A stretch of 33,514 nt of DNA, taken from NCBI GenBank assembly GCA_020428995.1, contig JAGQLW010000017.1:1-33514 (forward strand). Reading direction: 5' to 3'. Below the pieces are notes generated by a model. The model searched no databases, had not been told where the DNA came from, and worked only from the letters and a program-made list of their open reading frames with translations. This document shows positions 269 to 32,345 of the stretch, in pieces; the stretch's first letter is position 1, and every line of letters starts with the position of its first letter. The position numbers and the translations under genes are program-made. The stretch comes from Candidatus Moraniibacteriota bacterium (GTDB lineage Bacteria; Patescibacteriota; Minisyncoccia; Moranbacterales; GCA-2747515).

Positions 269-391
269 CAGAGTTAATATTTTTGGCACAACTCTTCGTT
301 ATGCACCGCGGTACGCATTCGCTGTATGATATATACAGCTCATTGTGTTCCTCGTGCATGCTTTGATTTGCACTCAAAAATATACACTCTG
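269..391 (+). repeat. R-element copy R1 (long imperfect hairpin element)
   Basis: 5' arm CAGAGTTAATATTTTTGG (269-286) pairs with 3' arm CAAAAATATACACTCTG (375-391). Inner helix is ATGCAC/GTGCAT and the apical hairpin is GCTGTAT/ATACAGC. The 5' arm is tandemly duplicated at 249-266. Confidence 0.75.
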
Positions 392-394
392 ATA

Positions 395-502
395 AGAATA
401 AGAATCTGTGATTTTCATTCAAAACTAAAAATTCTGTAAATTTCTGTTCGTTTTTGACTAGGCATATGTTCTGAATTTTCGAATTCAAAAATATACGCTT
501 TG
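395..502 (+). repeat. Degenerate or partial R-element (R1b)
   Basis: Its 3' end TTCAAAAATATACGCTTTG (about 484-502) nearly repeats the R1 3' arm. AAATTTCTGTTCG resembles the 5' core. No good outer helix is present. Confidence 0.35.
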
Positions 503-595
503 TGTCAGTGGTTTGTTTTTCGGAAAGCATTTTTTGGGTTTGATAGTATTACATATTATAATGACAATAAACGTAACTTGATTGAAAAAAATTTT

Positions 596-2113
596 ATGGA
601 AAAGGATTTTTTGGCAGATTTTGCCAGTGCGATTGCGCAGATTGCCGAGGAAAAGGGGATTGAGCGTGGTCGTGTGATGGAGGTTGTTGAGGCAGCGTTG
701 GCTGCGGCGTATAAAAAAGAATATGGAAAGCGTGGACAGCACATTCGTGCTGAGTTTGACGATGTTTCAGGATCGGTGAAATTCTTCTTGCAAAAAGAAG
801 TTGTTGATGAGACCGTGCGTGAGTTTCCAACGGTTGTTGGAGAGGGTTTGCAAATGGCATCATTGAGCAGTGGAGAAGTTTCTATTTCCACAGCGGGTGC
901 TGATTTGCCTTCTGTTCCCGCACAACGTCCTCGTTTTGAAGATTCTGACGATTTTGATGATGGAGATGAAGACCGTTTGCAACGTTTCCACTGCGAACGA
1001 GATATTATTGTTGAAGATGCGCAGGAATTCAAAAAAGGTGCTGTTGTTGGTGACACTATTGAAATTGAGCTTCCACCTCACAGTGATTTTGGTCGTGTTG
1101 CAGCACAGACGGCAAAACAGGTGATTATTCAGCGTGTGCGTGAGGCGGAACGTGATGCTATGTTTGCTGAATACAAAGAAAAAGAAGGAGAGGTTCTTAA
1201 TGGAACGGTGCAACGTGTTGAAGGACGCACGGTGTTTGTTGATCTTGGAAAATCTGTTGGTGCGTTGTTGCCACCAGAACAAATTCCTGGTGAAAACTAT
1301 CGTGTTGGTCAGCGTGTGAAGGTTTTGCTTGCTTCTGTTGCATCTGATTCTCGTGGTCCTGGTATTGTGCTTTCTCGCACACATCCTGATTTTGTGCGTC
1401 GTTTGTTTGAGCTTGAAGTGCCGGAGATTTTTTCTGGAACTGTGCAAGTGAAATCCATTGCGCGCGAAGCGGGTTCTCGCACAAAAATTGCTGTTTTTTC
1501 TGAGGAACAAGGGGTGGATCCAATCGGTTCTTGTGTTGGTCAGAAAGGAACACGTGTGCAGGCAGTGATTGATGAACTTGGTGGTGAAAAAATTGATATT
1601 ATTGAATGGCGTGAGAATGTTGAGAAATTTATTGGTGCTGCGTTGTCTCCCGCAAAGGTTGCTTCTGTCACTCTTAATGAAGAGGAAAAACATGCTTCTG
1701 TGTTGGTGCCAGAAGATCAATTGTCGTTGGCGATTGGTCGACGTGGACAGAATGTGCGATTGGCATCTCGTTTGGTTGGGTGGCGTATTGATGTGTCTGC
1801 TTCTACGGCGGAAGATGCTGTTGAAGAGTCTTCCGAAGAGGGTGTTGAGGCAGATGCTTCTGAGAGTGGTGAAGTGTCTGCACTTTCTGAGGAAGAGAAG
1901 GCTGATGAGAATGTCATTTCTGAAAAGGTTGTTGAGGTAGATGCTCCAGCGCTTGATGATGATGTTGTTTCCGCTCTTTCTGATTCAGATGCTGTTGTGT
2001 CCAAAGATAATTTTGCTGATGAAGAAAAAGTTGCAGATGATTCTGTTGAGAAAGAAGTTGCAGATGGAAAGAAAAAGTCTTCCCCTGCTAAGGCTGTGGA
2101 AGAATCAGAATAG
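596..2113 (+). CDS. nusA: Transcription termination/antitermination factor NusA with an acidic low-complexity C-terminal tail
   Basis: The ORF 500..2113 translation shows an NusA N-terminal domain, an S1 region (GEVLNGTVQRVEGRTVFVDLG) and KH domains (GSCVGQKGTRVQAV, LAIGRRGQNVRLAS). I trimmed the start to the ATG at 596 (MEKDFLADF). Confidence 0.9.
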   Translation: MEKDFLADFASAIAQIAEEKGIERGRVMEVVEAALAAAYKKEYGKRGQHIRAEFDDVSGSVKFFLQKEVVDETVREFPTVVGEGLQMASLSSGEVSISTAGADLPSVPAQRPRFEDSDDFDDGDEDRLQRFHCERDIIVEDAQEFKKGAVVGDTIEIELPPHSDFGRVAAQTAKQVIIQRVREAERDAMFAEYKEKEGEVLNGTVQRVEGRTVFVDLGKSVGALLPPEQIPGENYRVGQRVKVLLASVASDSRGPGIVLSRTHPDFVRRLFELEVPEIFSGTVQVKSIAREAGSRTKIAVFSEEQGVDPIGSCVGQKGTRVQAVIDELGGEKIDIIEWRENVEKFIGAALSPAKVASVTLNEEEKHASVLVPEDQLSLAIGRRGQNVRLASRLVGWRIDVSASTAEDAVEESSEEGVEADASESGEVSALSEEEKADENVISEKVVEVDAPALDDDVVSALSDSDAVVSKDNFADEEKVADDSVEKEVADGKKKSSPAKAVEESE

Positions 2114-2147: not shown

Positions 2148-2678
2148 ATGAATTTGTGGCATGACCTTTCTTCGGGAACAAAAAAGAGTATGAATGTTGT
2201 GATTGAGATTCCGCGTGGCTCGAAGAATAAATATGAAATTGATAAGGAGACGGGATTGATTCGATTGGATCGAGCAATGCGTTCTTCACAGGATTATCCT
2301 TTTGATTACGGTTTTGTTCCACGCACATTGTGGGACGATGGGGACGCGTTGGATGTGATTGTTTTGACGACATATCCTTTGTCGCCAGGGATTTTGGTCA
2401 ATGCTCGTCCTGTTGCTGTTGTGAAAATGATTGATTCAGGTGACAGTGATGACAAAATTATTGCTGTTCCGGAGCATGATCCTCGTTGGGATCGTGTGAA
2501 AGATTTGAAAGATCTTAACCCATATACTGTCAAAGAAATAAAACACTTCTTTGAAACGTATAAGTCTATTGATGGCAAGGTTGTTGAGATTAAAGGAGTT
2601 TCTGGTGTGAAGCAGGCGCGTGAGGCGTTTGATCGGTCGGTTGCTCTCTACAAGCAACAGGTTGTCGACCGCGGGTAA
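2148..2678 (+). CDS. ppa: Family I inorganic pyrophosphatase
   Basis: 176 aa. It carries VVIEIPRGSKNKYEIDKETG..LDR and DGDALDV motifs typical of soluble PPase. Confidence 0.9.
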   Translation: MNLWHDLSSGTKKSMNVVIEIPRGSKNKYEIDKETGLIRLDRAMRSSQDYPFDYGFVPRTLWDDGDALDVIVLTTYPLSPGILVNARPVAVVKMIDSGDSDDKIIAVPEHDPRWDRVKDLKDLNPYTVKEIKHFFETYKSIDGKVVEIKGVSGVKQAREAFDRSVALYKQQVVDRG

Positions 2679-2680
2679 AA

Positions 2681-2797
2681 GCTTTTGTTTTGGGCATAGC
2701 TCTTTGTCACACGTTCCGGGACGCACTCGCTGTATTTTTATATACAGCTCGTTTGCATTCCTCGCGTGTTTCGCGATCTGTACTCCAAAATGTTCGC
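2681..2797 (+). repeat. R-element copy R2
   Basis: It starts 3 nt after the ppa stop. Outer pairing is TGTTTTGGG/CTCCAAAATG with G.T wobbles, the inner helix is ACACG/CGTGT and the apical hairpin is GCTGTAT/ATACAGC. Confidence 0.65.
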
Positions 2798-2917
2798 TTT
2801 TATATTCTTAAAAGGTGATTCCTTTGAATTTGACTATCTTTTTGACGAGTATTGTTGTTGTTTGATCAATACTATTTAATTTGTGTGATTTATTGAATTT
2901 TAATTTTTGTAGTGCTT

Positions 2918-4251: not shown

Positions 4252-4839
4252 ATGAAAGAGCATAATCAGTATCTCATTCCAACAGTGATTGAGAAAACGC
4301 ATTATGGTGAGCGGGCATATGACATTTATTCTCGACTGCTCAAAGATCGTATCATTTTTATTGGTACGCCGATTGAGGATGGTATGGCAAATGCAATTAT
4401 TGCGCAGCTTTTGTTTTTGGAATCGCAAAATCCGGATGAGGATATCAAGATTTATATTAACTCTCCCGGTGGTGTTGTTTCTTCTGCGTTGGCGATCTAT
4501 GACACAATGCAATATGTGAAGCCTGACGTGCAGACGATTTGTGTTGGGTTGGCGGCGTCTGGAGCAGCACTCTTGTTGGGTGCTGGCGCCAAGGGTAAGC
4601 GCATGATTTTGCCAAATGGTGAAGTAATGATTCATCAAGTGATGGGTGGTGCGCAAGGGCAAGCATCAGACATTGATATTCACGCACGACACATTCTCAA
4701 CACGCGAGAGCGATTGAACAAAATTCTAGCAAAACATACAGGGCAAAAGCTTTCCAAAATCGAGAAAGATGTTGATCGGGATTATTTTATGAGTGCTGAG
4801 GAAGCCAAGGTCTATCGCATCGTCGATCGCATCATCTAG
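4252..4839 (+). CDS. clpP: ATP-dependent Clp protease proteolytic subunit ClpP
   Basis: Motifs [25 protein letters not shown] (catalytic Ser context), MIHQ (His) and [10 protein letters not shown] (Asp) are present. The start is set at ATG 4252. Confidence 0.92.
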
Positions 4840-4841
4840 AA

Positions 4842-4961
4842 TTTCTTTATTTTTGGCATATTTCTTCGTCAAGAATTCCGTTGCGCGCTCGCTGTATAAT
4901 CACATACAGCTTGCTGTGCTACTCATTCTTTCCTTGAACTATATCCAAAAAGTAAAAAAAT
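4842..4961 (+). repeat. R-element copy R3
   Basis: It starts 3 nt after the clpP stop. Core is TTTTGGCATATTTCTTCGTCAAGAAT, inner helix AAGAAT/ATTCTT, apical hairpin GCTGTAT/ATACAGC, and 3' end CCTTGAACTATATCCAAAAAG. Confidence 0.7.
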
Positions 4962-4997
4962 TCTACCATCGTATTATTTTTTTTATGGTGTTTCTCA

Positions 4998-5093
4998 GGT
5001 GTTTTTGTTGATGTCTTGCGCTATTCGCTCGACGTATGTTTATATACGTCTCGCTCCGATGCTCGATACTGCCTTGAATTTCATCCAAAAAGC
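4998..5093 (+). repeat. R-element copy R4 (degenerate)
   Basis: The 5' core is GTGTTTTTGTTGATGTCTTGCG, the apical hairpin is GACGTATG/TATACGTC, and the 3' core is GCCTTGAATTTCATCCAAAAAGC. The outer helix is weak. Confidence 0.5.
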
Positions 5094-5096
5094 AAA

Positions 5097-5228
5097 AGAA
5101 TTTTGGTTGATATATTTCTGTGGTGATTTTTTTCTCACTCGCTATATTTTTATATACAGCTTCCGCCAGTTCGGCTTGCATCGAGTTCTGAGTTGAAGCG
5201 GGTAAGACGGGCATTCAAAAAATAAAAG
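5097..5228 (+). repeat. R-element copy R5 (degenerate, carries an M2 sub-module insertion)
   Basis: The 5' core is TTTTGGTTGATATATTTCTGTGGTG and the apical hairpin ends in ATATACAGC. The inserted module is GCTTGCATCGAGTTCTGAGTTGAAGCGGGTAAG (about 5174-5206). The 3' end is ATTCAAAAAATAAAAG. Confidence 0.45.
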
Positions 5229-5356: not shown

Positions 5357-6100
5357 ATGGAATATTCTTATCGTGCGATTGTTTTAGGCAAAAGAGACAT
5401 TGCAGACGTTGATCGTTTGTATACTTTTTATTCTTTGGAAGGTGGACTGCTTTGTGTTTCGGCTCGTGGTGTGCGCAAGGTGACGGCAAAACTTGCGGCC
5501 CATCTGGAGACATTTGTGGAAGCACATGTTTTGGTTGCGCGTCGGCGTGGATCAGGAACAATCATTTCTGCTGTGACGGAGAATGCTTATCCTGTCTTTC
5601 GCAGAGATGTTCTTGCTCTTGGAGAGTTGTTTTGGGTTGCTGATCAATTTTTGCGCATGGTGTCTTTTGATGATGTTGATGAACGGCTTTTTTTCTTATA
5701 TCGTTCTTTTTTGTCTACTGTGGAGGATATTTCTGCTCGTTCTGGTCTTTCTGAATCTCGGCGTGGAGATTTGTATCGACTTATATCGTTATCTTTTTTG
5801 TTTCACACATTGTCTCTTTTGGGGTACGATCTTTCTTTTTTGCGATGTGCCGTTTCAGGGAAAAGTCTTTCTTCATGTCAGTCGAGCTGTGTCTTTTCAC
5901 CTGCGCTTGGTGTTGTTGCTTGTGGGGAATATTCAGGTTCTTTTAGTGATGCTATTGTCGTCTCTGATAATACGATTAAGTTATTGCGTTTGTTTGCGAA
6001 TAACTCTTTTTCTTCTTTGATGAGACTTCATGTTGATCAACATGATCTGGCACAAGCACGTCGTGTCTATGATACTTTCTTTTTGTGGCATTTTTCTTGA
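5357..6100 (+). CDS. recO: DNA repair protein RecO
   Basis: The N-terminal OB-fold pattern is YRAIVLGKRDIADVDRLYTFYSLEGGLLCVSARGVRK. The C-terminus has a Cys-rich zinc-finger-like segment, CAVSGKSL..C..C...VVAC. Confidence 0.8.
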   Translation: MEYSYRAIVLGKRDIADVDRLYTFYSLEGGLLCVSARGVRKVTAKLAAHLETFVEAHVLVARRRGSGTIISAVTENAYPVFRRDVLALGELFWVADQFLRMVSFDDVDERLFFLYRSFLSTVEDISARSGLSESRRGDLYRLISLSFLFHTLSLLGYDLSFLRCAVSGKSLSSCQSSCVFSPALGVVACGEYSGSFSDAIVVSDNTIKLLRLFANNSFSSLMRLHVDQHDLAQARRVYDTFFLWHFS

Positions 6101-6105
6101 TTGTG

Positions 6106-6226
6106 AGGGCTTATGTGTTTGGCAAACTTCTTTGTCAAACGCTCTAGTGCTTGACGATGTATTTTTGAATACATTTTACTGTGCTCTTCGCGTTTTCCTT
6201 GAATTTTATTCAAACACATGAGCCCT
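6106..6226 (+). repeat. R-element copy R6
   Basis: It starts 6 nt after the recO stop. Outer helix AGGGCTTATGTGTTTG (6106-6121) pairs with CAAACACATGAGCCCT (6211-6226) with a single T.G. Inner helix is AAACGC/GCGTTT and the apical hairpin is ATGTATT/AATACAT. Confidence 0.85.
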
Positions 6227-6486
6227 AGATTCTTGGTATTTTCTAGGTGAAATTTGTATATCTGGATTTTACTAAAATATCCAGGTCTTAGAGATTTGGT
6301 ATTTATTTTTTAGTCTGACAACTATTATTTTTTTGTGTATTTCTTATTTTTTCTATTTCTCCATAGTCCTGCCTTGGATTTTCCTCAAAAACCAAATTCT
6401 TGGTATTTTACTTGATTTTTTTAAAATTTTGTTTTTTACCACACACATTTTTGTTATTTTGTTGTTATTTCGTATCTTTCTATTCG

Positions 6487-8507: not shown

Positions 8508-8542
8508 AATTAAAATTTGTTCTTGCGTGTTTTTTTTGTAGA

Positions 8543-8580
8543 GGTGTCTCATCTTTTTGGTGAGACATCTTTTTGTTTTT
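8543..8580 (+). terminator. Rho-independent terminator
   Basis: A 9-bp stem GGTGTCTCA (8543-8551) / TGAGACATC (8561-8569) with one G.T is followed by TTTTTGTTTTT. Confidence 0.75.
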
Positions 8581-8586: not shown

Positions 8587-8899
8587 AAGTAACTGTCTAA
8601 ATTCTCACCAATTTTGTTAAAAAATATTCTTGTCGGATAACACCTTATAATTTTGGCTGCTTGCTTGCCTCGCCTCGAGTTCCGAGTCGAAGCGGGCAAA
8701 ATATTCAGATCTCGTCAAAACTTGCTTGACGGTAGACAGGTATCTCGACCTGTTTTGCCGGCTTACCTCGGTTTGACGAGTCGAAGCTGTCAAGGCGGGT
8801 ATTTTTCCTCAATTTTCATTTTTTCTCCGCAAATGTACGGGGCGGGCGCTGGAAAATTCTGAAATTTATAGTTTGACATGAGAACTTAGATAGTTATTA
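8587..8899 (+). repeat. Expanded composite R-type element R7 (313 nt) with two M2 sub-modules
   Basis: 21-nt inverted arms AAGTAACTGTCTAAATTCTCA (8587-8607) and TGAGAACTTAGATAGTTATTA (8879-8899) pair at 17 of 21 positions Watson-Crick, with 2 G.T, 1 A.C and a terminal A.A. Inside are ATAATTTTGGCTGCTTGCTTG (core-like) and two copies of the CTCG..GAGTCGAAGC..GGG module (about 8660-8700 and 8757-8803). Small hairpins CGTCAA/TTGACG and ACAGGT/ACCTGT are also present. Confidence 0.6.
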
Positions 8900-9000: not shown

Positions 9001-10149
9001 ATGTTTTCTTTCAAACATTTTGATTCTTCACTTTTTCGACAAGGGTCTTTGACTGTGCCTCATGGTGAGATTCCAACACCATTTTTTATGCCTGATGCTA
9101 CACGCGCATCGATACGTGGTTTGTCTGTTGCTGACATTGAACGGACAGGTGTTTCGGCTATGGTTGTGAACACGTTTCATTTGTTCTTGCATCCAGGGAT
9201 GGAGATTGTTCGTGGTGCTGGAGGTGTTCATCGTTTCATGAATTGGTCAGGACCGCTTTTGTCTGACAGTGGGGGTTATCAAGTTTTTTCTTTGGTGCAC
9301 AAAAATTCACAAATGGGAACAATCACTGAGGAAGGTGTGCATTTTCGTTCTCCTGTTGATGGTTCGAAACATTTTTTGTCTCCTGAAAAAGCTATTGCAA
9401 TCCAGTTTGATCTTGGTGTGGATATGATGGTGTGTTTTGATGATCCTCCTCCGAATGGATATTCCAAGGAGCGTATTCGCGATGCAGTTGACAGAACGTT
9501 GCGATGGGCCGAACGTTGTCGTGTTGCTTATGATTATGAAGTGTCTGAACGGGGTTTGTCTTTGGAACAACGACCGTTGTTGTTTGGTGTTGTTCAGGGT
9601 GGGGAACATCTTGATTTGCGTCGATTTTGCGCGGAGCGTTTAACTGGTATTGGTTTTGATGGTTATGGTTTTGGCGCACGTCATGTTTCGGAGGAAGGTG
9701 ATTTTCTTTCTGAAGTATTGTCTGTTACGGCACAAGCACTTCCTGTTGAGTCGCCCCGTTTTGCCTTGGGAGTTGGTTCACCGTCTGATATTGTTCGTTG
9801 TGCTTCTTTTGGGTGGGACATGTTCGACTGTGTGATTCCAACACGTGAAGGACGGCATGGAAGGTTGTTTGTGTGGGAGAAAGATCCAAAGACTCTTTCT
9901 TGTTCAGATATTCTTTCTTCTCTTGATGATTTTTTCTCCACGTTTACTGTTGTGCGCAGTTCCTTTCGTGATGACTTTTCTCGTGTCGATTCATTTTGTG
10001 ATTGCATGCTTTGCACAAATCATTCTCGTTCATATCTTCGACATTTGCTTCGTGTTGGTGAGCCACTTGGTGCGCGATTGGCGTCAGAACATAATCTCAC
10101 TTTTTATTCTCAGTTGATGCGTGTTTTGCGTAATGATTCACAAGTTTGA
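9001..10149 (+). CDS. tgt: Queuine tRNA-ribosyltransferase (tRNA-guanine transglycosylase)
   Basis: Motifs TPFFMPDAT, LSDSGGYQVFSL, the zinc site CDCMLCTNHSRSYLRHL and EHNLTFY are present. The start is set at ATG 9001. Confidence 0.88.
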   Translation: MFSFKHFDSSLFRQGSLTVPHGEIPTPFFMPDATRASIRGLSVADIERTGVSAMVVNTFHLFLHPGMEIVRGAGGVHRFMNWSGPLLSDSGGYQVFSLVHKNSQMGTITEEGVHFRSPVDGSKHFLSPEKAIAIQFDLGVDMMVCFDDPPPNGYSKERIRDAVDRTLRWAERCRVAYDYEVSERGLSLEQRPLLFGVVQGGEHLDLRRFCAERLTGIGFDGYGFGARHVSEEGDFLSEVLSVTAQALPVESPRFALGVGSPSDIVRCASFGWDMFDCVIPTREGRHGRLFVWEKDPKTLSCSDILSSLDDFFSTFTVVRSSFRDDFSRVDSFCDCMLCTNHSRSYLRHLLRVGEPLGARLASEHNLTFYSQLMRVLRNDSQV

Positions 10150-11110: not shown

Positions 11111-12475
11111 ATGAGTGAGTCACTTTCTTCTTTGGATGTTGTTGTTTCGTTGGCTAAACGTCGTGGTTTTGTTTATCCCGCGTGTGAGATTTATGGGGGG
11201 TTTGCTAATGCGTATAGTTTTGGTCCGTATGGTGTTGAGTTGCGTAATAATATTAAAAAATTGTGGTGGAAGATGTTTGTGAATGATCGTTCTGATATTG
11301 TTGGAATGGACGGTCCGATTCTTTTGCATTCTCGTTTGTGGGAGGCGTCAGGGCACACCACTGGTTTTAATGATGCAATGGTTGACTGTAAGAAATGCAA
11401 GAAGCGTTTTCGTGCTGACCATTTGGTTGAGGAAGCTACGGGTAAGGACATGGAAGGAGATTTTCCTGCAATGAATGAGGCTCTTCGATTGATTCCGTGT
11501 TCGTCGTGTGGTGCAAATGATTGGACCGACGCACGGCAGTTTAACATGATGTTTCACACGTCAATGAATGGTTTTTCTGGTGATGTGTTTTTGCGTCCAG
11601 AGACTGCTGGTGCTATCTTTGTTGATTTTAAAAATATTGTTGATTCGATGCGGGTGCGCGTACCTTTTGGTGTTGCACAGATTGGAAAGGCGTTTCGTAA
11701 TGAGATTGTTGCGGGGAATTTTATTTTTCGTTTGCGTGAGTTTGAACAAATGGAGATTGAATATTTCATTCGTCCAGAGGAAAAGTGGGAGGAATTGTTT
11801 GAACAATGGCTTGTTCTGCAGGAACGTTTTGCAGTTTCTCTGGGAGCTTCTACTGATTCCATTCGTCGTTATGAACATCCAAAAGAAAAATTGTCTCATT
11901 ATTCAAAAAAGACGATTGATATTGAGTATAAATTTCCGTTTGGTTTCAAAGAGTTGTTTGGTTTGGCATGTCGTGGTGACTTTGATCTTTCCAGTCATGC
12001 GGCTGCTTCTGGTGTTGATTTGTCATTTCGTGATCCTGAGACAGGACAGTCGTATGTTCCTCATGTCTTGGAGCCTACTTTTGGTTTAGATCGATCTTTG
12101 TTGGTGACTTTGTGTGCGGCGTATCATGAAGAACAGTTGGAAAAAGGTTCTCGTATTGTCATGAAGTTTCCTTTTGCGCTGGCTCCTGTGAAAGTTGCTG
12201 TGTTTCCGCTTTTGAAAAACAAGCCAGAGCTTGTTGCTAAGGCGCGTGAAATTTTTGACATGCTCAAGACTTCTTTTGTGTGCGAGTTTGATGACAATGG
12301 TAATGTTGGAAAGCGGTATCGTCGTCAGGATGAGATTGGCACACCGTTTTGTGTGACAGTTGATTTTGATTCATTTTCTGATGGTGCTGTGACTGTTCGT
12401 GATCGTGACACAATGGTGCAGGAACGTGTTAGTGTTTCTGAGCTTTCTTCCTACCTTTCTTCTCGTCTCGGGTAA
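11111..12475 (+). CDS. glyQS: Glycine--tRNA ligase (homodimeric alpha2 type)
   Basis: Motifs RRGFVYPACEIYGGFANAYSFGPYGVELRNNIK, FLRPETAGAIFVDF, FRNEI....FIFRLREFEQMEIEYF and a C-terminal anticodon-binding domain (VAVFPL) are present. The start is set at ATG 11111. Confidence 0.92.
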   Translation: MSESLSSLDVVVSLAKRRGFVYPACEIYGGFANAYSFGPYGVELRNNIKKLWWKMFVNDRSDIVGMDGPILLHSRLWEASGHTTGFNDAMVDCKKCKKRFRADHLVEEATGKDMEGDFPAMNEALRLIPCSSCGANDWTDARQFNMMFHTSMNGFSGDVFLRPETAGAIFVDFKNIVDSMRVRVPFGVAQIGKAFRNEIVAGNFIFRLREFEQMEIEYFIRPEEKWEELFEQWLVLQERFAVSLGASTDSIRRYEHPKEKLSHYSKKTIDIEYKFPFGFKELFGLACRGDFDLSSHAAASGVDLSFRDPETGQSYVPHVLEPTFGLDRSLLVTLCAAYHEEQLEKGSRIVMKFPFALAPVKVAVFPLLKNKPELVAKAREIFDMLKTSFVCEFDDNGNVGKRYRRQDEIGTPFCVTVDFDSFSDGAVTVRDRDTMVQERVSVSELSSYLSSRLG

Positions 12476-12480: not shown

Positions 12481-12604
12481 CTGGAACTTAAGTGTTTGAC
12501 AAACTCCTGTGTCAAACACTCCAGTGCTCGACGGTGTATATTTATATACACCTTACTCCGCCCTTCGTGTTTTTCTTGGATTTTATTCAAACGTTGAAGT
12601 TCTG
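12481..12604 (+). repeat. R-element copy R8
   Basis: It starts 6 nt after the glyQS stop. Outer arms are 12481-12499 and 12587-12604, with several G.T pairs. A local 10-bp hairpin GTGTTTGACA (12492-12501) / TGTCAAACAC (12510-12519) is possible. Inner helix is AAACAC/GTGTTT and the apical hairpin is GGTGTATA (12533-12540) / TATACACC (12545-12552). Confidence 0.85.
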
Positions 12605-20720: not shown

Positions 20721-20775
20721 TGATGCGCACTTTTTTGTTTTGCTGAAAGTGGAATAAAGAGAACTAAGATCGATT

Positions 20776-21664
20776 TTATAGAGATATTGGAGAAAAATCA
20801 ATAATTATTGTTCCAGTGACGTGCAGACAACGGATTGTTGGGAAAAGTTTTTTTTGTGCGGTTTTTGCATGATCAATATTTTCAAAAATACCAATCATTG
20901 TTGATCCAGATCCTGTCATAAAGGATGCGCATGCGCCAGATTGGATTAGTCTAGATTTGATTTGTTTTAATTCTGGATACAGGGTGAATATGTGATTCTC
21001 AAAGTCATTGTGAAGGTGTTGGTATGTTATTGGTTTGTTTTGGTTTAATGTTTCGATTAGTTTTTTTGTAAGAAATACGTTTTGTCCTATTGTTTTATAA
21101 TTTATTGATGAGTATGCGTCTTTTGTGGAGACGCCGAAAAGGGGAAAAATAATTAAGAAGACGAAGCGTGTGTTTGTGTGAATCTTGAATATATCCATAC
21201 CGGCTTCGGAGTCAAACGCGGTTCCGCCATAAAAAAAAATATGGAACATCCATGCCGACCTGTCGTCCGAGAGATTTGATCTCATTTGGTGAAAGAGGAG
21301 TGTTGTAATAATTATAAAGGAGTTTCAAAACTGTCGCCGCATTGGATGAGCCTCCTGCAAGACCTCCTTCAGTAGGTATGTTCTTTTCAATATGAATGTG
21401 TATTGGTTTGGAAGTATTGTATTTCTTTCTAAAAATATCAATAGCTTTTATACAAGTATTTTTGTCATCTGTTGGTATTCGAGGGTCCGAGCAGGTGAGG
21501 GAGTCTTGATCGCTTTGTGTCAGATGTATGATGTCATACAGATCTATCATGTGTTTTATGATGCCCATTTCGTGGTATCCAGAATGTGGACTGTTGGTGA
21601 TCTTACGGATGATATCTGGGGAAAGCGTGATTCGTGCGTATGACTTTTCTTTAATTGTTTTCAT
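20776..21664 (-). pseudogene. ispE: 4-diphosphocytidyl-2-C-methyl-D-erythritol kinase (IspE), split by a frameshift in a T9 run
   Basis: The N-terminal ORF 21212..21664 carries the GHMP motif PTEGGLAGGSSNAA and ends ..GMDVPYFFLWRNRV*. The C-terminal ORF 20776..21285 reads ..FFYGGTAFDSEAG... and carries TGSGSTMIGIF. The two frames join at the homopolymer at 21231-21239. Confidence 0.75.
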
Positions 21665-21782
21665 GGCCGTATGAGATCATGCAAATAACAGAAATACCTT
21701 CACCTTTTCCACTTTTCCACATGCGGTGAGACCGTCACCGCTGGTTGCTGTATGCCGATCAATTTTTCTGAGAGATTGAGTA

Positions 21783-22937
21783 TTAGTGCGATATTTTTTT
21801 TATTTGTACGAATGATTTTTCGAGTTTTGGTCGTTTTGCTTCAATTGAAATCGACACATTGTTTATAGTGATATTTTTCTTTCTGAAGATATCTTTGACG
21901 TGTTTTACGTATCGCGTGCTATCGTTGATTCCTTGTTGATTCATTTCTGTGGCGTATACGCCGAGTGATCCTGTGCCACAGGCACTGCCGAGAGTATTGC
22001 ATAGTGCATGAAGAACAGCGTCACCATCTGATTCTCCGTCTAGGATTATTTCGTCTGAAAAAACCAGGCCGCCCAGAATTAGCCCTTTTTTTTGTTTTGC
22101 TGAAACGGTGGGAGTCCTGACCAATTGCAACGTATGTCGTGTGTTCTTTTTAATTAAAGTCTGAAAAATGATTAAATCTTCGGGGGTAGTGACTTTGAGG
22201 TTATCATAAGATCCTGGTGAGACACTAACATTAACACCAGTATTTTCAAGTAATGACATGTTATCGGTCCCAACGAATTTTTCTTTGATAGCTTTTTGAT
22301 GACACTCCAAGAAGGTTTGTTTGGAGGCGATTTGTGGTGTTTGAATGTGCCACAAGTTTTCACGTGGCATTGTGCTTGTTACTTACATCTTTTTATCTGT
22401 TTGTTTTATGGTGTCTTTTACTGGAACTGCTAGGGTTACACCCTCATTTTCTTTTAATGTTGATAAGGCGTTGTTGATGTCTTTTGGGTGTACGAAGGGT
22501 TGTGCGCCATCGTGGATCATGACAATGCCGTCGTTGGCTGCGTGTACACCAGTATACGAAGATTTTTGACGTGTGTCACCTCCTGTGAGTATATGGCGTA
22601 CTTTGGTGAAGGAGTGTTTTTGTACTAGATTGTGGAAAGTTTTTTGATCGTTTTTGTTTACAGTATACGAAGATTTTTGACGTGTGTCACCTCCTGTGAG
22701 TATATGGCGTACTTTGGTGAAGGAGTGTTTTTGTACTAGATTGTGGAAAGTTTTTTGATCGTTTTTGTTTACTACGAGTATGATGTTGTTAACATACTTG
22801 CGTTGTTCAAAGATGTTAATGGTGTAGTATATGAGTGGTTTTTTAAAGCTGTACAGTAGTTTGTTGTAGTCAAGACCCATTCGTGCGCCAGCGCCTGCAC
22901 ATAGAATTATGGCTGTTATGTGTTCATATGATTTCAT
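21783..22937 (-). pseudogene. ispDF: Fused IspD/IspF (MEP cytidylyltransferase / MEcPP synthase-like) gene, interrupted by an in-frame TAA and carrying a 111-bp tandem duplication
   Basis: The IspD N-terminus reads ITAIILCAGAGARMG. The frame reads ..VPVKDTIKQTDKKM-TAA-VTSTMPRENLWHIQTPQ.., continuous apart from the stop at 22383-22385. The C-terminal part is IspF-like (LILGG....ESDGDAVLHAL) but lacks expected metal ligands and ends early. Confidence 0.65.
22551..22772. repeat. Perfect 111-bp tandem duplication (2 units) inside ispD
   Basis: Unit 22551-22661 is repeated identically at 22662-22772. This duplicates 37 codons in frame (VNKNDQKTFHNLVQKHSFTKVRHILTGGDTRQKSSYT twice). Confidence 0.95.
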
Positions 22938-22971
22938 GGGAAAAAATTTCTCACCATATTTTATGATTTAT

Positions 22972-22998
22972 TTGACCTGTATATTCTAGAAGTATAAA
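22972..22998 (+). promoter_or_regulatory. Candidate promoter TTGACC-15 nt-TATAAA ahead of the hypothetical gene and ATPase operon
   Basis: The -35-like hexamer is at 22972-22977 and the -10-like hexamer at 22993-22998. The spacer is short, so the call is weak. Confidence 0.25.
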
Positions 22999-23157
22999 AC
23001 AAAAGGCGTGACAATTGAAATGTAACTTTTTTGAGTGTTTTTTTGGAGTGGCGTGGCTTTGCCTTGCACTTTGCTTTGTTTGGGTTTATTCTGTTTTTGT
23101 CCGTAGTTCTTTGGAGTATAGAATTTTTTGTCTACACTTTCGTGGGAGGTGGTGTTA

Positions 23158-23510
23158 TGAGTGCTGATGTGGTTTATGATCGGAGGCCTATTTCTGATCT
23201 TGGTGAATCCGTCCGGCGCACGATTATTGATCGTGCGTGTGAATGGGTGATCCGTCATTGTTATGGTGGGCATCTCCCGTCGCATGTTTCTGTTTCTCAT
23301 GTTTTTTTGGATGAGAGTTATGGTTTGCGTGAATATGAGGCTGCTTCGCGTGATATTCTCTTCGTGTTCGCTGTTTTTAATAGTGCTCTTTATTCCGTTC
23401 GTGTGATTCATGGTTTTGGGTGTCCTTGGGATGATTCCTCGTTTTCTGTCAAAAAGGTTGGCGCATCGTTTCAGGTGTCTGATTCTGTTAATGACGATGT
23501 TCCTGCGTGA
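23158..23510 (+). CDS. Hypothetical protein (117 aa)
   Basis: The ATG at 23158 is preceded by GGAGG (23146-23150) at 7-nt spacing. Codon and amino-acid composition match the other + strand genes. I recognise no family motif. Confidence 0.5.
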
Positions 23511-23586
23511 TTTTTTTTCAATGTTGCCAAGTGTAAAAAACGGTGCTATGATTAGTACCGTTTTCATTTACTTATTTTTTTTTCTT

Positions 23587-23898
23587 ATGGGGACAGATCT
23601 TGATGAAATTATTGTTGCAGAGAAAGAAGCGCAAAAAATTGTTGATGAGGCACGTGAGAAGGCTCGTTCTTTGACAGAGGGGGTACGTTCTTATTATGAG
23701 CAAGTATCTCAAAAGAATTTGTCTGAGTTGCGCTTGGATCGCGAACGTGTTTTTTCTGAGCAAGATAAAAAATTGTCTGATGAGAAGGAGGCTGTGATTT
23801 CTCAGTGGAACAGTCGACAAAAGGTGATTGTTGACGGTGCAAATAATCGTCGTGCTGACGCGCTTTCTGCGTCAATGCGTGTTTTTTTTAATGAATAG
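23587..23898 (+). CDS. V/A-type ATPase small coiled-coil peripheral-stalk subunit (G/H-like)
   Basis: 103 aa, highly charged and helical (IIVAEKEAQKIVDEAREKARSL...). It lies immediately upstream of subunit I, as ahaH/atpG does in A/V operons. The start is set at ATG 23587. Confidence 0.5.
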   Translation: MGTDLDEIIVAEKEAQKIVDEAREKARSLTEGVRSYYEQVSQKNLSELRLDRERVFSEQDKKLSDEKEAVISQWNSRQKVIVDGANNRRADALSASMRVFFNE

Positions 23899-23916
23899 TT
23901 TTGATTTTGTTGCCCT

Positions 23917-25875
23917 ATGATGCTGGACATGCAAAAAATTCGTCTTCTTGTACACCACGATGCTTCTTTGCGAGTGATGTCTGTTGTGCAGAAATTGGGT
24001 TTTGTTGAATTGACTCGTGTTGACAACAAGGAACTTTCTCGTCGACAGAAGAGTGATTTTGATTTGAATCATGAAAGTGCATTATTAGATTTTGCTGTTG
24101 CATTTCTCACTCCTTTTTTTCAGCCATCTGACAAGGTGCAGTACATGCTTACTGGTGGACGATTTATTACGACACACAAAAATATTTCTCAATTATGGGA
24201 GAAGTTTGATTACTCATCTGTTTTGTCTTCGGTTGAGAAATTGCAATCTTCTTTTTACAAAAACAGTGCAAGTCAAAAAGATGTGGAGGCGAAAAGGAAA
24301 CAACTTTTGCCATGGGTTGGGTATCCTGGTTTGCTTGATGTTCCTCGTCAGACGCGACTGACACGCACTGTTTTTTTGCTTGCTTCTTCAGCACGATCTG
24401 TTTCTGGCAATCAGGATTTTGCAAAAATGTTGCTCCAGATTCTTTCTTCTTCTGGATGTGTGTTTCATTTTGTTCGTGTGAGCCCTAGTGCTGTTGTTGT
24501 GACGTTTCTGTCTGGTGACGCGTCTGTTTTTGAAAAGTTTTTTTCTGATTCTGTTTTTGATATTGTCGACCTTCCTGTTGTTTCATCTTCTGTTTCAGAG
24601 GCTCTTTTGTCTTGTGACCGTGATTTGCAACAATTGATTCGTGAAAGGTCTTCTCTTGAAAAAGAGGTTCGCTTGTTGGCGCGCAATCTTCCACAACTAC
24701 AAGCACTTAGTGACGACGTATACTGGAAGAAGTCTTGTCACAATGTTATATCGGGATCGTGGGCAACACATTCGGTTGATGTCTTTGAAGGGTGGATTCC
24801 TGTGTCTGCGCGTGATGCTTTTGTAAAGGCTTTGAAGCGTGTAACGCCGTATTTTTCTTTGGAGAATATCGCTCCAGATGATGAAGAGCAACCCCCTGTT
24901 GAGATTGTGAATACAAAAGCGGTTTTGCCTTTTGAGTCGGTGACTCGTTTGTATGGTTTGCCTGGAAGTAAGGATTTGGATCCCACTCCGTATCTTGTCG
25001 GTTTTTTTCTCATTTTTTTTGGTTTGTGTTTGACTGATGTGATCTATGGTATCGTACTCAGTACCATTACTGGGTATGTTTTGTGGAGGTACACTGTTTC
25101 AAAGGAAACGAAAGCGTTGTTATCAGTTGTGTTTCTGGGAGGTATTGCGTCGTTTTTCATTGGTCTATTTTTTGGTGGTTATGCTGGAATTGATATGGCT
25201 TCTATGCCGTCATCTTTACAATTTCTCCAATTGTTTGATCCTGTAAAGGATCCAATAGCTGTTTTTCTGCTAGCACTCAGTTTTGGTGTTGTGCATATTT
25301 TGACTGGATTGGTTTTGGGTATTATGCGTCAGGCACAACAAGGTCTTCTTGTGGATGGTCTTTTGTCTCATGGCTCATGGATTGTTGTTCTTCTTTCATT
25401 GGTTTATTTTGCTTTGGAGCAGGCAGGTATTTTTGGTTTAGCTATTGGTGGATCGTTGGTGATTGGAGCGTTTGTTTTTTTAGTGTTGGCTCAGGGACAT
25501 CGAGAGAAGACTGTTGTTAAAAAAGTACTTACTGGTTTGGTGAGTCTGTATGATAGTGTGGGGTATTTTTCAGATTTGCTGTCGTATTCTCGTCTAATGG
25601 CGCTTGGACTAGCAACGAGTGCATTGGCGTTTGCGATGAATTTGGTTGCCGAATTGGTGTCTGGTGTTCCGTATGTTGGAAACGTAATTGCTGTCTTAGT
25701 GTTGATTGTTGGGCATACGTTTAATATTGCATTGAATACTCTTGGAGCGTTTATTCATAGCGCGCGGTTGCAGTTTGTGGAGTTTTTCGGCAAATTTATT
25801 ATTGATAGTGGGCGTGTTTTTGCCCCTTTTCATCGAGAGGAGCGTCATGTGATTATTCGTGATGATGTTTCTTAG
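23917..25875 (+). CDS. atpI: V/A-type ATPase subunit I (a-subunit, stator/proton channel)
   Basis: 652 aa. It has a soluble N-terminal half and a polytopic C-terminal half with the conserved Arg context LLSYSRLMALGLA. Confidence 0.85.
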   Translation: MMLDMQKIRLLVHHDASLRVMSVVQKLGFVELTRVDNKELSRRQKSDFDLNHESALLDFAVAFLTPFFQPSDKVQYMLTGGRFITTHKNISQLWEKFDYSSVLSSVEKLQSSFYKNSASQKDVEAKRKQLLPWVGYPGLLDVPRQTRLTRTVFLLASSARSVSGNQDFAKMLLQILSSSGCVFHFVRVSPSAVVVTFLSGDASVFEKFFSDSVFDIVDLPVVSSSVSEALLSCDRDLQQLIRERSSLEKEVRLLARNLPQLQALSDDVYWKKSCHNVISGSWATHSVDVFEGWIPVSARDAFVKALKRVTPYFSLENIAPDDEEQPPVEIVNTKAVLPFESVTRLYGLPGSKDLDPTPYLVGFFLIFFGLCLTDVIYGIVLSTITGYVLWRYTVSKETKALLSVVFLGGIASFFIGLFFGGYAGIDMASMPSSLQFLQLFDPVKDPIAVFLLALSFGVVHILTGLVLGIMRQAQQGLLVDGLLSHGSWIVVLLSLVYFALEQAGIFGLAIGGSLVIGAFVFLVLAQGHREKTVVKKVLTGLVSLYDSVGYFSDLLSYSRLMALGLATSALAFAMNLVAELVSGVPYVGNVIAVLVLIVGHTFNIALNTLGAFIHSARLQFVEFFGKFIIDSGRVFAPFHREERHVIIRDDVS

Positions 25876-26117
25876 GGTTGTGTTTTGGTGTTTTTTTATC
25901 TTTCTTTTGAGTCGGGAAAGGTGCGAAAACATTGAAGCGGAACAATGTTTCTGACGCTTCTCGTTTATTGATTTAAATAATGTGTAATTAAGTAATTGTT
26001 TGCGGGTATGTGCATTTTGTATGACTTGAGAGATGCTGGTAAAAATTTTTTATTTTTTACCTATTTATTTATCTTATTGAGTTGTATCTCTAATGAACAT
26101 ATTTCGTATATTATGTT

Positions 26118-26600
26118 ATGACGGATGTATTTACGGTAGGTCTTGTGTTTGCGGGTGCTGGCATTGCAGCGTCTATGACGTTTGTAGGTAGTGCAATTGG
26201 TATGGGTATTGCTGGTCAGGCTGGTGCTGGTGTTGCGTCTGAGAAGCCACAACTGTTTGGTAAAATCCTTGTCCTTCAGGTGCTTCCTGGTTCTCAGGGG
26301 ATTTATGGTCTTGTTGTTGCTGTGTTGATTCTGGTCACTGCCGGTGTGATTGGTGGTGGGGAGGGAACTTCTGTCTTGACTTTGTCTCAAGGATTTCAGT
26401 ATTTTCTTTCTGGGTTTCCTATTGGTTTTGCAGGATTGGTTTCTGCGAAACTTCAGGGAATGGTTTCTGCCGCAGGTATTGCCATGATTGCTAAAGATGA
26501 GTCGCTTGCAGGTCGCGCAACAACACTTGCTGTTATGGTTGAGACGTGGGCGTTGTTTGGTCTTTTGGTGAGTGTGTTGTTGGTACTTTTTGCTGCGTAA
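26118..26600 (+). CDS. atpK: V/A-type ATPase subunit K (duplicated 4-TM proteolipid c-subunit)
   Basis: 160 aa with four hydrophobic helices and Gly-rich TM1 and TM3. The LPGSQGIYG (TM2), SAKLQG (TM3) and MVETWALFG (TM4) motifs are present. The only membrane carboxylate is Glu142. Confidence 0.88.
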   Translation: MTDVFTVGLVFAGAGIAASMTFVGSAIGMGIAGQAGAGVASEKPQLFGKILVLQVLPGSQGIYGLVVAVLILVTAGVIGGGEGTSVLTLSQGFQYFLSGFPIGFAGLVSAKLQGMVSAAGIAMIAKDESLAGRATTLAVMVETWALFGLLVSVLLVLFAA

Positions 26601-26622: not shown

Positions 26623-26744
26623 CAGGACTTACGTGTTTGGCACATTTCTGTGTTAAAATCTCGAAAAATCGACGCAATATTGTATATATTCCTTACGATT
26701 TTTCTCAATTTTGCCTTGAACTGTACTCAAACACGTAAGTCCTG
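26623..26744 (+). repeat. R-element copy R11 (between atpK and atpE)
   Basis: A perfect 17-bp outer helix joins CAGGACTTACGTGTTTG (26623-26639) and CAAACACGTAAGTCCTG (26728-26744). Inner pairings are ACATTTC/GAACTGT and GAAAAATCG/CGATTTTTC, and the apical hairpin is AATAT/ATATT. Confidence 0.9.
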
Positions 26745-28760: not shown

Positions 28761-28884
28761 TCAGGAATAACGTGTTTGGCGCATTTCTTTGTTAAGAGCT
28801 GTGGTGCTCGACATCGTATATAACATACAGTTTACTTCGCTCCTCGCTCTTGCCTCGAACTGCACTCAAACACGTTATTTCTGA
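28761..28884 (+). repeat. R-element copy R12 (between atpF and atpA)
   Basis: It starts 3 nt after the atpF stop. Outer helix TCAGGAATAACGTGTTTG (28761-28778) pairs with CAAACACGTTATTTCTGA (28867-28884) with one G.T. Inner helices are GCATTTC/GAACTGC and AAGAGC/GCTCTT. Confidence 0.88.
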
Positions 28885-30739: not shown

Positions 30740-30837
30740 ATCTTAATTGTTAATGAAATTATAAATTGTAGCAGATCATTTGTGTTTTCCTTGTGTTTTC
30801 CTTGGTTGTGCAAATGGTGTCTTGCGTATCATATTTT

Positions 30838-32217
30838 ATGAAAGAGTATAAAACAGTACAATCAATTTCCGGCCCCCTTGTTGTTGTGGAGGGTGTTTCT
30901 GGTGTTGCTTATGATGAACTTGTTGAGGTTTTGGTTCCTGGTGAAAAGGCGCCACGACTTGGGAAGGTTCTTGATGTGTCGTCTGATCGTGCTGTTGTGC
31001 AGATGTTTGAACCAACATCTGGCACACAGACAGCTGATACGCGCGCACGTTTTACAGGTCAAGCGCTTAAGATCGGTGTTTCTACGGATTTGTTGGGGCG
31101 TATTTTTAATGGTAAGGGGGATCCAATTGATAATGGTCCTGCTATTATTCCTGAGAAACATCTTGATATTAGTGGCGCACCAATTAATCCATGGAGTCGT
31201 CAGTATCCGAATGATTTTATTCAAACGGGTGTTTCATCATTAGATGTCATGAACACGCTTGTGCGTGGTCAGAAGTTGCCAATTTTTTCTGGTGCAGGAT
31301 TGCCTCACTTAAAACTGATGGCGCAAATTGCGCGACAGGCGAAGGTAGCTAGTCAGTCTGGTGATGAATCTGGTTTCGCTATTGTTCTTGCCACACTTGG
31401 ATTGCCGTTTGAAGAAGCAGAATATTTGCGTCATTCACTTGAAGAGTCTGGTGCTTTGGAGCGGGCAGTGGTTTTTTTGAACACAGCTGCTGATCCTGTT
31501 GTTGAGCGTATTGCTACACCGCGTATGGCGTTGACCGTCGCGGAGTATCTTGCGTTTGAAAAGGGAAAACACGTTTTGGTTATCCTTGGTGACATGACAA
31601 ACTATTGTGAGGCTCTTCGTGAAGTCTCTGGTGCTCGTAAAGAAGTTCCTGGTCGTCGTGGTTTTCCAGGGTATATGTATACTGACCTTTCGACAATTTA
31701 TGAACGAGCAGGGCGGTTGAAAGGGTGTGAGGGAACGATTACGCAAATTCCGATTCTTACCATGCCCGATGATGACAAGACTCATCCAGTTCCAGATCTT
31801 ACGGGGTATATTACTGAAGGGCAGTTTATTATTTCTCGTGAGTTGTTCAAAAAAGGCGTGACGCCACCGGTTGACGTGCAGGGTTCGTTGTCGCGTCTTG
31901 CGGGTTCTGTTCAGGGGAAGCGTACTAGAGAAGACCATGCGCAAGTGAAAGATCAGTTGTTTGCGTCATATGCTTTGGGGCGTGATGCACGTGAGTTGGC
32001 TGTTGTGTTGGGTGAATCTTCTTTGGATGAAGTTGATTTGGCACACATTGCGTTTTCTGATGCGTTTGAGCGAGAATTTATTTCGCAAGATGAGTCAGTG
32101 GATCGATCATTGGAAGAATCTTTGGATTTGGGGTGGAAGCTTTTGGCGATGTTGCCACAGTCTGCTCTTAAGCGCGTGAAAGCTGAAATGATTGAGAAGT
32201 ATCTTCCTAAGAAGTAG
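30838..32217 (+). CDS. atpB: V/A-type ATPase non-catalytic subunit B
   Basis: It begins [19 protein letters not shown] and carries [24 protein letters not shown]. The start is set at ATG 30838, because the track ORF begins at an upstream GTG. Confidence 0.93.
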
Positions 32218-32220
32218 CTG

Positions 32221-32345
32221 TCAGAACTGACGTTTTTGGTAAACTTCTTTGTCGAACGCTCCAGTGCTCACCGGTGTATGTTTGCATACACCTTGTTGCG
32301 CCCTTCGTGTTCTTCTCGAATTTTATCCAAACACATCAGTTTTGA
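32221..32345 (+). repeat. R-element copy R13 (between atpB and atpD)
   Basis: It starts 4 nt after the atpB stop. Outer arms are TCAGAACTGACGTTTTTGG (32221-32239) and CCAAACACATCAGTTTTGA (32327-32345). Inner helix is GAACGC/GTGTTC and the apical hairpin is GGTGTATG/CATACACC. Confidence 0.85.

Follow-up and report, generated by a model that had tools for sequence, protein, structure and literature searches.

A stop codon-adjacent palindromic repeat of about 123 bp in Patescibacteria, probably a foldback miniature inverted-repeat transposable element

The stretch of DNA analyzed here (the window) is the complete 33,514-nt contig JAGQLW010000017.1, which the public annotation assigns to 'Candidatus Moranbacteria'. 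According to Pfam, its + strand carries nusA, ppa, tig, clpP, recO, a class II aminoacyl-tRNA synthetase gene, an AI-2E transporter gene, tatD and others, in that order. A short block of minus-strand genes (20136-23567) with + strand genes on both sides comes next, and is followed on the + strand by a V-type ATPase operon with the gene order I-K-E-C-F-A-B-D. Copies of an imperfect palindrome of about 123 bp recur between the + strand genes, so that about 4% of the contig is this single repeat family. The element is probably a foldback miniature inverted-repeat transposable element (MITE), that is, a non-autonomous DNA transposon, which is widespread in Patescibacteria; the probability of this reading is put at roughly 0.75. 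Elements of this kind are already known from bacteria, as in the MITEs ERIC, Correia and RUP, and the family itself is apparently undescribed to date.

A covariance model was built from an alignment of nine claimed copies and used to scan the whole window with filters off. The window holds 11 copies by this model, or 12 if one weak match is counted (Table 1), and the nine full-length copies score 101-130 bits. All of them lie on the + strand, and the minus-strand matches are low-scoring shadows at the same palindromic loci. When the nine copies are aligned, RNAalifold predicts a single rod of 39 pairs, 27 of which show compensatory changes, and every window copy folds as a rod with a z-score of -3.8 to -8.3 relative to shuffled sequences. 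The distance from the stop codon to the element is -3 to +6 nt in eight window copies and 22 nt behind ntpK. The first-pass annotation, made from the sequence of the window, had described a co-oriented family of rods of roughly 120 nt with covarying helices that begin next to stop codons, and each of these features is borne out. It also recognized no known family, in agreement with the absence of any Rfam match at the gathering score over the whole window; at E<=5, a 2.4-kb stretch holding two copies gives only a chance-level snoRNA match.

The list of copies in that annotation needs revision in places. Nine full copies and those at 4978-5102 and 19763-19939 are hits of the model, the segment listed as 5097-5228 yields only the weak partial match at 5114-5187, and the supposed expanded copy at 8587-8899 has no covariance-model match even at E<=10. 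Fragments had been placed at about 395-502 and 6371-6395, where the evidence is weak. The direct-repeat family D15 consists of three repeats of the element's 3' terminus; near 412-502, these repeats correspond to a model match at 458-502 (9.2 bits, E 3.1) and an nhmmer match at 409-435 (E 2). The copy at 19763-19939 opens with the TAA that is the tatD stop codon.

Table 1. Copies and candidate fragments of the element in the window
Feature	Position	Strand	Score	Context and remarks
Full copy	269-391	+	113.7 bits	Rod fold -41.9 kcal/mol, z -5.6; upstream of nusA, no called coding sequence before it
Two possible additional tandem copies of the 3' terminal ~25 nt	412-436, 478-502	+		Direct-repeat family D15; weakly supported
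Full copy	2677-2801	+	101.4 bits	Shares the last 2 nt of the ppa stop codon (2676-2678), distance -2; Pfam Pyrophosphatase
Full copy	4839-4963	+	113.7 bits	Begins on the last base of the clpP stop codon (4837-4839), distance -1; Pfam CLP_protease
Degenerate copy	4978-5102	+	38.4 bits, E 1.5e-7	15 nt behind the preceding copy
Possible third, badly decayed copy (unconfirmed)	5114-5187	+	12.6 bits, E 0.44	
Full copy	6105-6227	+	129.5 bits	4 nt past the recO stop codon (6098-6100); Pfam RecO_N, RecO_C
Possible solo 3'-end fragment	6370-6401	+	E 0.42	nhmmer with 3'-end profile; weakly supported
Full copy	12482-12604	+	124.9 bits	6 nt past the class II aminoacyl-tRNA synthetase stop codon (12473-12475); Pfam tRNA-synt_2b, HGTP_anticodon
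Full copy	16540-16661	+	106.8 bits	3 nt past the AI-2E transporter stop codon (16534-16536); Pfam AI-2E_transport
Expanded copy, 177 nt	19763-19939	+	32.7 bits (local match 19777-19899)	Two internal insertions by alignment; Pfam TatD_DNase
Full copy	26623-26744	+	118.6 bits	V-type ATPase operon, 22 nt past the subunit K (proteolipid) stop codon; Pfam ATP-synt_C
Full copy	28762-28883	+	126 bits	V-type ATPase operon, 3 nt past the subunit F stop codon, before subunit A; Pfam ATP-synt_F, ATP-synt_ab
Full copy	32222-32344	+	120.3 bits	V-type ATPase operon, 4 nt past the subunit B stop codon, before subunit D (Pfam)

To look beyond the window, the two conserved cores were joined into a gapped pattern; in bacterial assemblies at one genome per species it matches at least 116 stretches, and the counts outside the window rest on the matches listed. 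The covariance model finds at least 146 further copies in 78 other genomes, many of which score like the window's own. Copy number differs widely between genomes, and the same sequences recur in independent assemblies of the window's population. Most hosts are labelled Patescibacteria (Kaiser-, Morani-, Magasanik-, Kerfeld-, Yanofsky-, Taylor-, Campbell-, Nomura-, Vogel-, Lloyd- and Yonathbacteria, plus Paceibacterota). One contig labelled Micavibrio sp. (DYDB01000007.1, locus L044) encodes a lysyl-tRNA synthetase (LysRS) whose closest named homologues are from Parcubacteria (84%) and Moraniibacteriota (76%), and is probably mis-binned or mislabelled; several other labels ('Bdellovibrionales', 'Gammaproteobacteria' and 'Saccharibacteria') on co-assembled metagenome-assembled genomes (MAGs) may be equally unreliable. 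The assembly JAZRWH01 (labelled Myxococcota) looks like a host genuinely outside Patescibacteria, with a gene content unlike theirs (a Ser/Thr kinase, PP2C, giant Cys-rich proteins and 45% G+C). Its nine copies (loci L008, L019, L070, L083, L092-L094, L097 and L115) are mostly about 95-100% identical over the element, sit within 400-500-nt mosaic clusters of other short repeats, often near contig ends, and lie 150-190 nt away from stop codons. They may represent a recent transfer and burst in another phylum. A consensus copy has no blastn match in the phage and plasmid collections, a pattern scan of IMG/VR gave no match, and a full-text literature search returned no paper joining Patescibacteria or the candidate phyla radiation (CPR) to MITEs, REPs or intergenic repeats.

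Stable hairpins located at gene ends might also be factor-independent terminators, or the repeats might be a product of chance or assembly. As the first-pass annotation had pointed out, however, the elements lack T-tracts: no T-run appears in the profile of the 3' flanks, and a terminator scan finds 8540-8572 and 14076-14101 instead of the elements. Termination would have polar effects within the V-ATPase operon, which contains three of the copies. An artefact is at odds with sequences that recur in the 78 other genomes and in assemblies made independently from the window's population, and explanations of this type are highly improbable.

At about 123 bp (<300 bp), non-coding and multi-copy, the element has the size and dispersal of a MITE. 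Its inverted termini TAGGACTTACGCGTTTG...CAAACGCGTAAGTCCTA are conserved, and the consensus ends TAGGACTTACGCGTTTGG...CCAAACGCGTAAGTCCTA are present in many copies of different lineages. Perfect 5-bp direct repeats flank 11 of 149 copies, compared with 0.4 expected by chance under random pairing, and repeats with one mismatch flank 5 more copies, compared with 4.1 under the same expectation. The duplicated pentamers are ATAAC, ATTTA, TATTT, TAAAA, TTAAG, AATCG, ACTAT, GAAAA, AAACT, AAAAT and GATTA, and the copies that have a duplication are mostly those with consensus termini. The element inserts into A+T-rich 5-bp targets, which get duplicated. In the window, the flanks gattgt/gattct of the copy at 6105-6227 resemble a duplication that has decayed.

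A filled and an empty site can be compared at a single locus. In L044 the element sits between lysS and a cytidylyltransferase (CTP_transf_like) gene, and the same site is an element-free spacer of 31-37 nt in L123 (LysRS 95% identical) and in two further relatives, L124-L127 (84%). The junction at the lysS site bears an ACA/ACATA repeat, and L123 does carry the element, though at a different position. The window itself has no close relative, the nearest V-ATPase B being 75% identical, and the comparison of filled with empty sites covers the lysS locus. Presence/absence differences between close relatives are a marker of recent mobility. Insertion sites are also not conserved at the level of the neighbouring gene, since 94 copies stand behind about 84 different gene families, and where a gene family does recur, the copies behind it are usually unrelated to each other.

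The ends of the element extend to a wider set of sequences. At least 120 metagenome stretches contain an exact match to the 18-nt terminus, with many of the hits coming from the Hainich wells, and the covariance model gives only 33 hits in 79 loci carrying this terminus. The remaining terminus-bearing elements are 101-202 nt long and have the same ends with unrelated interiors, and one such sister element has a perfect TATAT duplication. Identical ends on several unrelated short elements indicate one transposase that recognizes these ends, and the pattern fits several MITE families being moved by one transposase. The first-pass annotation had preferred a structured RNA; the inverted ends, the duplications and the empty site are instead those expected of a MITE, with a cognate transposase not found.

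Candidates for the ends of an autonomous element were considered and rejected. Solo 5' and 3' ends detected with nhmmer are remnants or copies truncated by contig ends, a single end in L185 adjoins other repeats and no transposase, and two ends 4.7 kb apart in L199 belong to two separate copies flanking miaA and thrS. These L199 copies (4515-4637 and 9160-9282) are inverted around a 4.5-kb segment with miaA, thrS and two small open reading frames (ORFs), which is the layout of a potential composite transposon.

The position of the copies relative to genes was analyzed with genes called by an in-house heuristic based on ORFs and codon usage. A same-strand gene lies upstream of 108 copies; counted from the end of its stop codon, the element begins at -3 to +4 nt in 70 of them and at -20 to +7 nt in 89. 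The commonest distance is -3, at which the element's own TAG or TAA serves as the stop codon; the first three bases of the element are the gene's stop codon in 22 copies, and the reading frame enters the element by a few bases in about 14. Within 20 nt of any stop codon there are 92 sense and 6 antisense copies. The earlier statement that no copy is inverted is therefore true of the window but not of the family, where an antisense orientation is seen in about 6 of 98 copies next to a stop codon. Of the sense copies in co-directional spacers, 79% fall within the spacer's first tenth, and roughly one quarter of the copies elsewhere are not behind a sense stop codon. Distances on the start side are unreliable because maximal ORFs restart just past the element's stop codons, and antisense copies that seem to abut start codons were set aside as an artefact of maximal ORF extension after those stop codons. 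Surviving copies are strongly enriched flush with the stop codon and in one orientation.

Orientation was also compared with the direction of replication. Taking the locus-majority strand as the replication proxy, copies beside minority-strand genes are sense in 11 cases and antisense in 3, and in strongly skewed loci the counts on the minority or lagging strand are 3 and 0. Taking GC skew as the proxy, copies on the G-rich strand comprise 71 after leading-strand genes and none antisense after lagging-strand genes (p=1.6e-5). Locus L064 contains two oppositely oriented copies 3 kb apart, each of which is sense to its own gene. Orientation tracks the gene more closely than it does the strand of replication. 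The G-rich strand carries 94 elements and the other strand 15. Lagging-strand genes precede only 3 of 77 stop-adjacent copies, compared with 15% of genes on that strand (p=0.004), a deficit that may be inflated by under-calling of genes.

The same placement can be read as the mark of a cis-acting structured RNA on the mRNA strand, primarily a hairpin in the 3' untranslated region (3'-UTR) or between cistrons that protects or processes transcripts or acts on the terminating ribosome, with its spread being secondary. The strong sense and stop-flush bias fits such a role, as does an orientation that goes with the gene even where this lies on the minority or lagging strand. Three copies are intercistronic within one operon, independent copies recur behind rpsJ, rpsG, rpsO, rplB, efp and pilB, and ERIC offers a precedent with an effect that depends on the ribosome and on orientation. 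Across the family the hairpin pairing is kept through compensatory change, which goes with the foldback MITE reading as well. Copies behind atpE in L013 and L079 (85% identical) look like the same insertion in two species and differ by three compensated pair changes in one helix. Complementary-strand sequences from 45 genomes, one from each, were aligned independently; paired cells make up 93.7% of this alignment, compared with 70.6% in shuffles and 34-42% when partners are slid, and there are 436 double-change cells compared with 128 in shuffles. Templated correction of quasi-palindromes during replication can yield compensation as well. The compensation could thus come from selection on structure or from such correction, and the present data do not separate the two.

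The wobble pairs make it possible to compare the two strands. On the mRNA strand, the model-based alignment has 119 G:T and 244 A:C cells, with the same result in every quartile of local skew. When both orientations of each copy are folded, the complementary strand has the lower energy in 145 of 153, with a mean gap of 9.6 kcal/mol, and this holds in 76 of 78 genomes; much of the gap is inherited from the consensus through two family-wide G:U columns, and the copies are not independent evidence of it. With DNA energy parameters, the complementary strand (-25.3 versus -21.0 kcal/mol) is more stable in 152 of 153 copies. The 45-genome alignment likewise gives the better consensus fold on the complementary strand (-49.7 kcal/mol, 32 of 40 pairs compensated), where G:U outnumbers A:C by 120 to 28, and by 62 to 25 after removal of the two family-wide G:U columns (p=9e-5). 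Wobble counts at variable positions thus favour the complementary strand, against the local mutational skew. This strand has purine-rich internal loops with GGAG/AAGGA-like runs, and the mRNA strand carries their pyrimidine-rich complements.

Wobble therefore offers no evidence for a functional fold of the mRNA strand. The first-pass annotation had counted about 11 G.T against 3 A.C pairs in the window and taken them to favour a + strand RNA; the family-wide counts reverse this, and the window's ratio is what its strong G+T strand bias predicts, as that annotation itself suspected. For a structured RNA, further difficulties are the weaker folding of the mRNA strand, the lack of an Rfam match, the variable copy number, the insertion sites that are not conserved, the young copies with intact duplications in other contexts and the JAZRWH01 copies far from stop codons. 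As the primary function of the element, a structured RNA is somewhat unlikely; it could also apply in part, as an exaptation of the MITE.

A constraint on single-stranded DNA would fit the strand asymmetry. Here the strand complementary to the coding strand would have to fold, either in the course of transposition or as a result of the instability of strong hairpins in the lagging-strand template, and orientation would be a matter of replication direction, as proposed for the attC sites of integrons. The wobble asymmetry and the stronger fold of the complementary strand, which persists with DNA parameters, are in line with this proposal, as are the preference for the G-rich strand and the scarcity of stop-adjacent copies behind lagging-strand genes. 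However, orientation goes with the gene where the gene and replication proxies conflict, the two oppositely oriented L064 copies are each sense to their own gene, and the 5-bp duplications indicate double-strand insertion of the DDE type and not single-strand HUH transposition. The energy asymmetry is largely inherited from the consensus, and the lagging-strand deficit may come in part from gene under-calling. This explanation is quite unlikely.

Several points weigh against the element being a MITE as well. No transposase or autonomous partner was found in the 116 genome loci and about 80 metagenome loci, a search that did not extend to end pairs 1-3 kb apart in the collections. Clustering of about 875 ORFs from the 116 loci, evaluated by inspection and not with Pfam, places housekeeping families on top and shows nothing transposase-like. 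About 90% of the copies are without a recognizable duplication. The outer stem is variable in sequence yet complementary, which is not expected for an end bound by a transposase and calls for selection in situ or templated palindrome correction. Transposition alone accounts for neither the 15:1 orientation bias nor the flush position, and a wobble preference on the non-mRNA strand is unexplained for a MITE. The gene-calling heuristic under-calls genes on the C-rich strand and over-extends starts. Finally, the trend with age is based on 11-16 copies: those with an intact duplication number 4 sense, 2 antisense and 5 other, compared with 93, 4 and 41 in the rest (Fisher p about 0.04-0.05). These less biased copies and the distance of the JAZRWH01 copies from stop codons suggest that the bias in orientation and placement builds up after insertion.

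The MITE reading can be combined with selection or exaptation at gene 3' ends, which we infer from this pattern. Insertion would be roughly orientation-neutral and would prefer A/T-rich pentamers, often containing TAA, at gene ends. Selection at the level of the host would then purge copies that, towards the downstream end of short spacers, harm promoters or ribosome-binding sites, along with copies that place the other strand in the transcript. In the purged orientation, the transcript would contain a hairpin about 10 kcal/mol stronger, purine-rich and with GGAG/AAGGA-like motifs. The retained copies would be co-transcribed as 3'-UTR or intercistronic hairpins, for example behind V-ATPase K, F and B, and may influence mRNA decay or processing or the terminating ribosome, by analogy with ERIC and Correia. 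A stronger version holds that the MITE has been domesticated as a post-stop module in streamlined Patescibacteria, with an RNA-level job coupled to translation termination and the opposite-strand wobble reflecting a second constraint, a single-stranded step in mobility. This version is unlikely. The job could consist in punctuating an operon, in giving parts of the V-ATPase operon different stabilities, or in exposing a cleavage site under ribosome control as proposed for ERIC.

Among known systems, ERIC is, together with Correia, the closest precedent: an imperfect palindrome of about 125 bp whose ends pair into one long stem-loop, with TA termini, a target-site duplication, an intergenic location and co-transcription. 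The likeness is one of architecture alone, and ERIC differs in sequence and in phylum. Its terminal repeats are 7 bp, and it duplicates a TA dinucleotide, compared with a duplication of 5 bp in the present family. We know of no report of a 15:1 sense bias or a stop-flush position for ERIC. Its orientation is decisive for the effect on the upstream mRNA (Delihas review, PMC2229807), and the same review describes bacterial MITEs of 100-200 bp that have TA termini, duplicate the target site and form end-to-end stem-loops. The Correia (NEMIS) elements of Neisseria are likewise short MITEs with TA termini and a target-site duplication, and have terminal inverted repeats of about 24 bp. Their transcripts form hairpins that have been proposed as RNase III targets modulating neighbouring genes (PMC2229807). 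In Correia only the ends pair, whereas the present element is a covarying rod throughout. Correia elements also carry IHF and promoter motifs. For ERIC and Correia, RNase III processing and effects on mRNA stability that depend on orientation have been reported (PMC2229807).

RUP of Streptococcus pneumoniae and the TIMEs (Tn3-derived inverted-repeat miniature elements) resemble the family as non-autonomous elements mobilized in trans via shared terminal repeats. Tn3-family elements produce 5-bp duplications and have ends of the form GGGG...; the present termini are unlike these, and no cognate insertion sequence was identified. The REP/BIME palindromes of E. coli are intergenic, lie at gene 3' ends and stabilize upstream mRNA. 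As Liang, Rudd and Deutscher are said to have reported in 2015, a REP hairpin near the stop codon (within 15 nt) stalls the terminating ribosome, which is the mechanism proposed in the first-pass annotation. REPs are 20-40 nt long, have GTAG/CGTC heads, are linked to RAYT and lack a duplication, whereas the present element is 123 nt long with 5-bp duplications and no such head, features on which a REP/RAYT identity was rejected. The clusters contain no recurring neighbour protein of the kind that membership in REP/RAYT would call for, and no RAYT search of the genomes was made.

The attC sites of integrons share with the family imperfect palindromes directly behind ORFs, a structure conserved over sequence and a folding strand complementary to the coding strand. 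An attC identity was rejected: the core polarity is opposite (5'-GTTTG...CAAAC-3' here, 5'-RYYYAAC...GTTRRRY-3' in attC), the copies adjoin housekeeping genes such as nusA, ppa, clpP and recO and lie inside the V-ATPase operon, not among cassettes, the element makes 5-bp duplications, and no integrase was seen. The IS200/IS605-derived PATE elements (no duplication, a fixed one-sided target of 4-5 nt, subterminal hairpins) were also rejected, as the flanking 5-mers here are variable and duplicated.

Other observations concern the window around the copies. A sigma-70-like promoter at 16628-16656 (TTGCCT, 17 nt, TATAAT; 10/12 matches) falls in the 3' arm of the copy at 16540-16661, faces an rsmI-like gene at 16668 and is without a counterpart in the consensus element. 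The roughly 313 nt at 8587-8899 look like a foldback of another kind, bounded by 21-nt inverted ends of its own (TAAGTAACTGTCTAAATTCTCA / TGAGAACTTAGATAGTTATTA), and lie directly behind a good intrinsic terminator at 8540-8572. A small motif, GAGTTGAAGCGG, at 5190-5201 is directly 3' of the weak match at 5114-5187, and a motif GAGTCGAAGCGG is nested in the expanded copy at 19898. A second small repeat, GAGTYGAAGCKG, with a unit of about 35-45 nt (e.g. CCTCGAGTTCCGAGTCGAAGCGGGCAA), occurs four times on the + strand, compared with 0.68 expected. Its occurrences are at 5190-5201 in the decayed 5097-5228, at 8684-8695 and 8778-8789 in the foldback, and at 19898-19909 in the expanded copy 19763-19939.

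The whole + strand of the window is G- and T-rich, including the minus-strand gene block. In a profile of 17000-26500, the + strand GC skew is +0.12 to +0.34 and the AT skew is negative, also over the minus-strand genes. Since the skew persists across these genes, the bias is a property of the DNA strand (replication) and not of coding, and the minus-strand genes differ so much in codon usage that a codon-trained caller misses them. Within this block, ORF 22383-22937, which by eye resembles ispD, contains a perfect (100%) 111-nt tandem duplication at 22550-22771 that gives an in-frame repeat of 37 residues, with NKNDQKTFHNLVQKHSFTKVRHILTGGDTRQKSSYT present twice. This duplication is either a very recent event or an assembly artefact. 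An ispE-like gene on the minus strand at 20776-21664 is seemingly split into the overlapping ORFs 21212-21664 and 20776-21285, as read from the translations, and could be a frameshift or a pseudogene. In L122, protein P0002 is a V-ATPase B homologue of 704 residues from an unrelated metagenome that internally duplicates about 245 residues of its own sequence; a read-through fusion over the element was considered and rejected, as the protein is unrelated and internally duplicated.

Few known genomes are as streamlined as those of Patescibacteria, and a single repeat family nevertheless takes up about 4% of this contig. The elements are signs of recent mobility in organisms that are believed to have few mobile elements, and their 17-18-nt ends mark a superfamily of short elements in groundwater and other metagenomes. 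The repeats also fragment assemblies, with contigs of independent assemblies often ending inside a copy, as in L004 (at about 4957 of the window, in the copy 4839-4963), L101, L038, L055 and L175, and they affect annotation where the element supplies stop codons or lengthens reading frames. The features that stand out are the breadth over Patescibacteria, the extreme stop-flush and sense-biased retention, and the wobble signature on the non-transcribed strand. If the bias reflects selection at the RNA level, the family would represent hundreds of natural experiments on post-stop hairpins and possibly a simple handle on operon regulation in uncultured bacteria.

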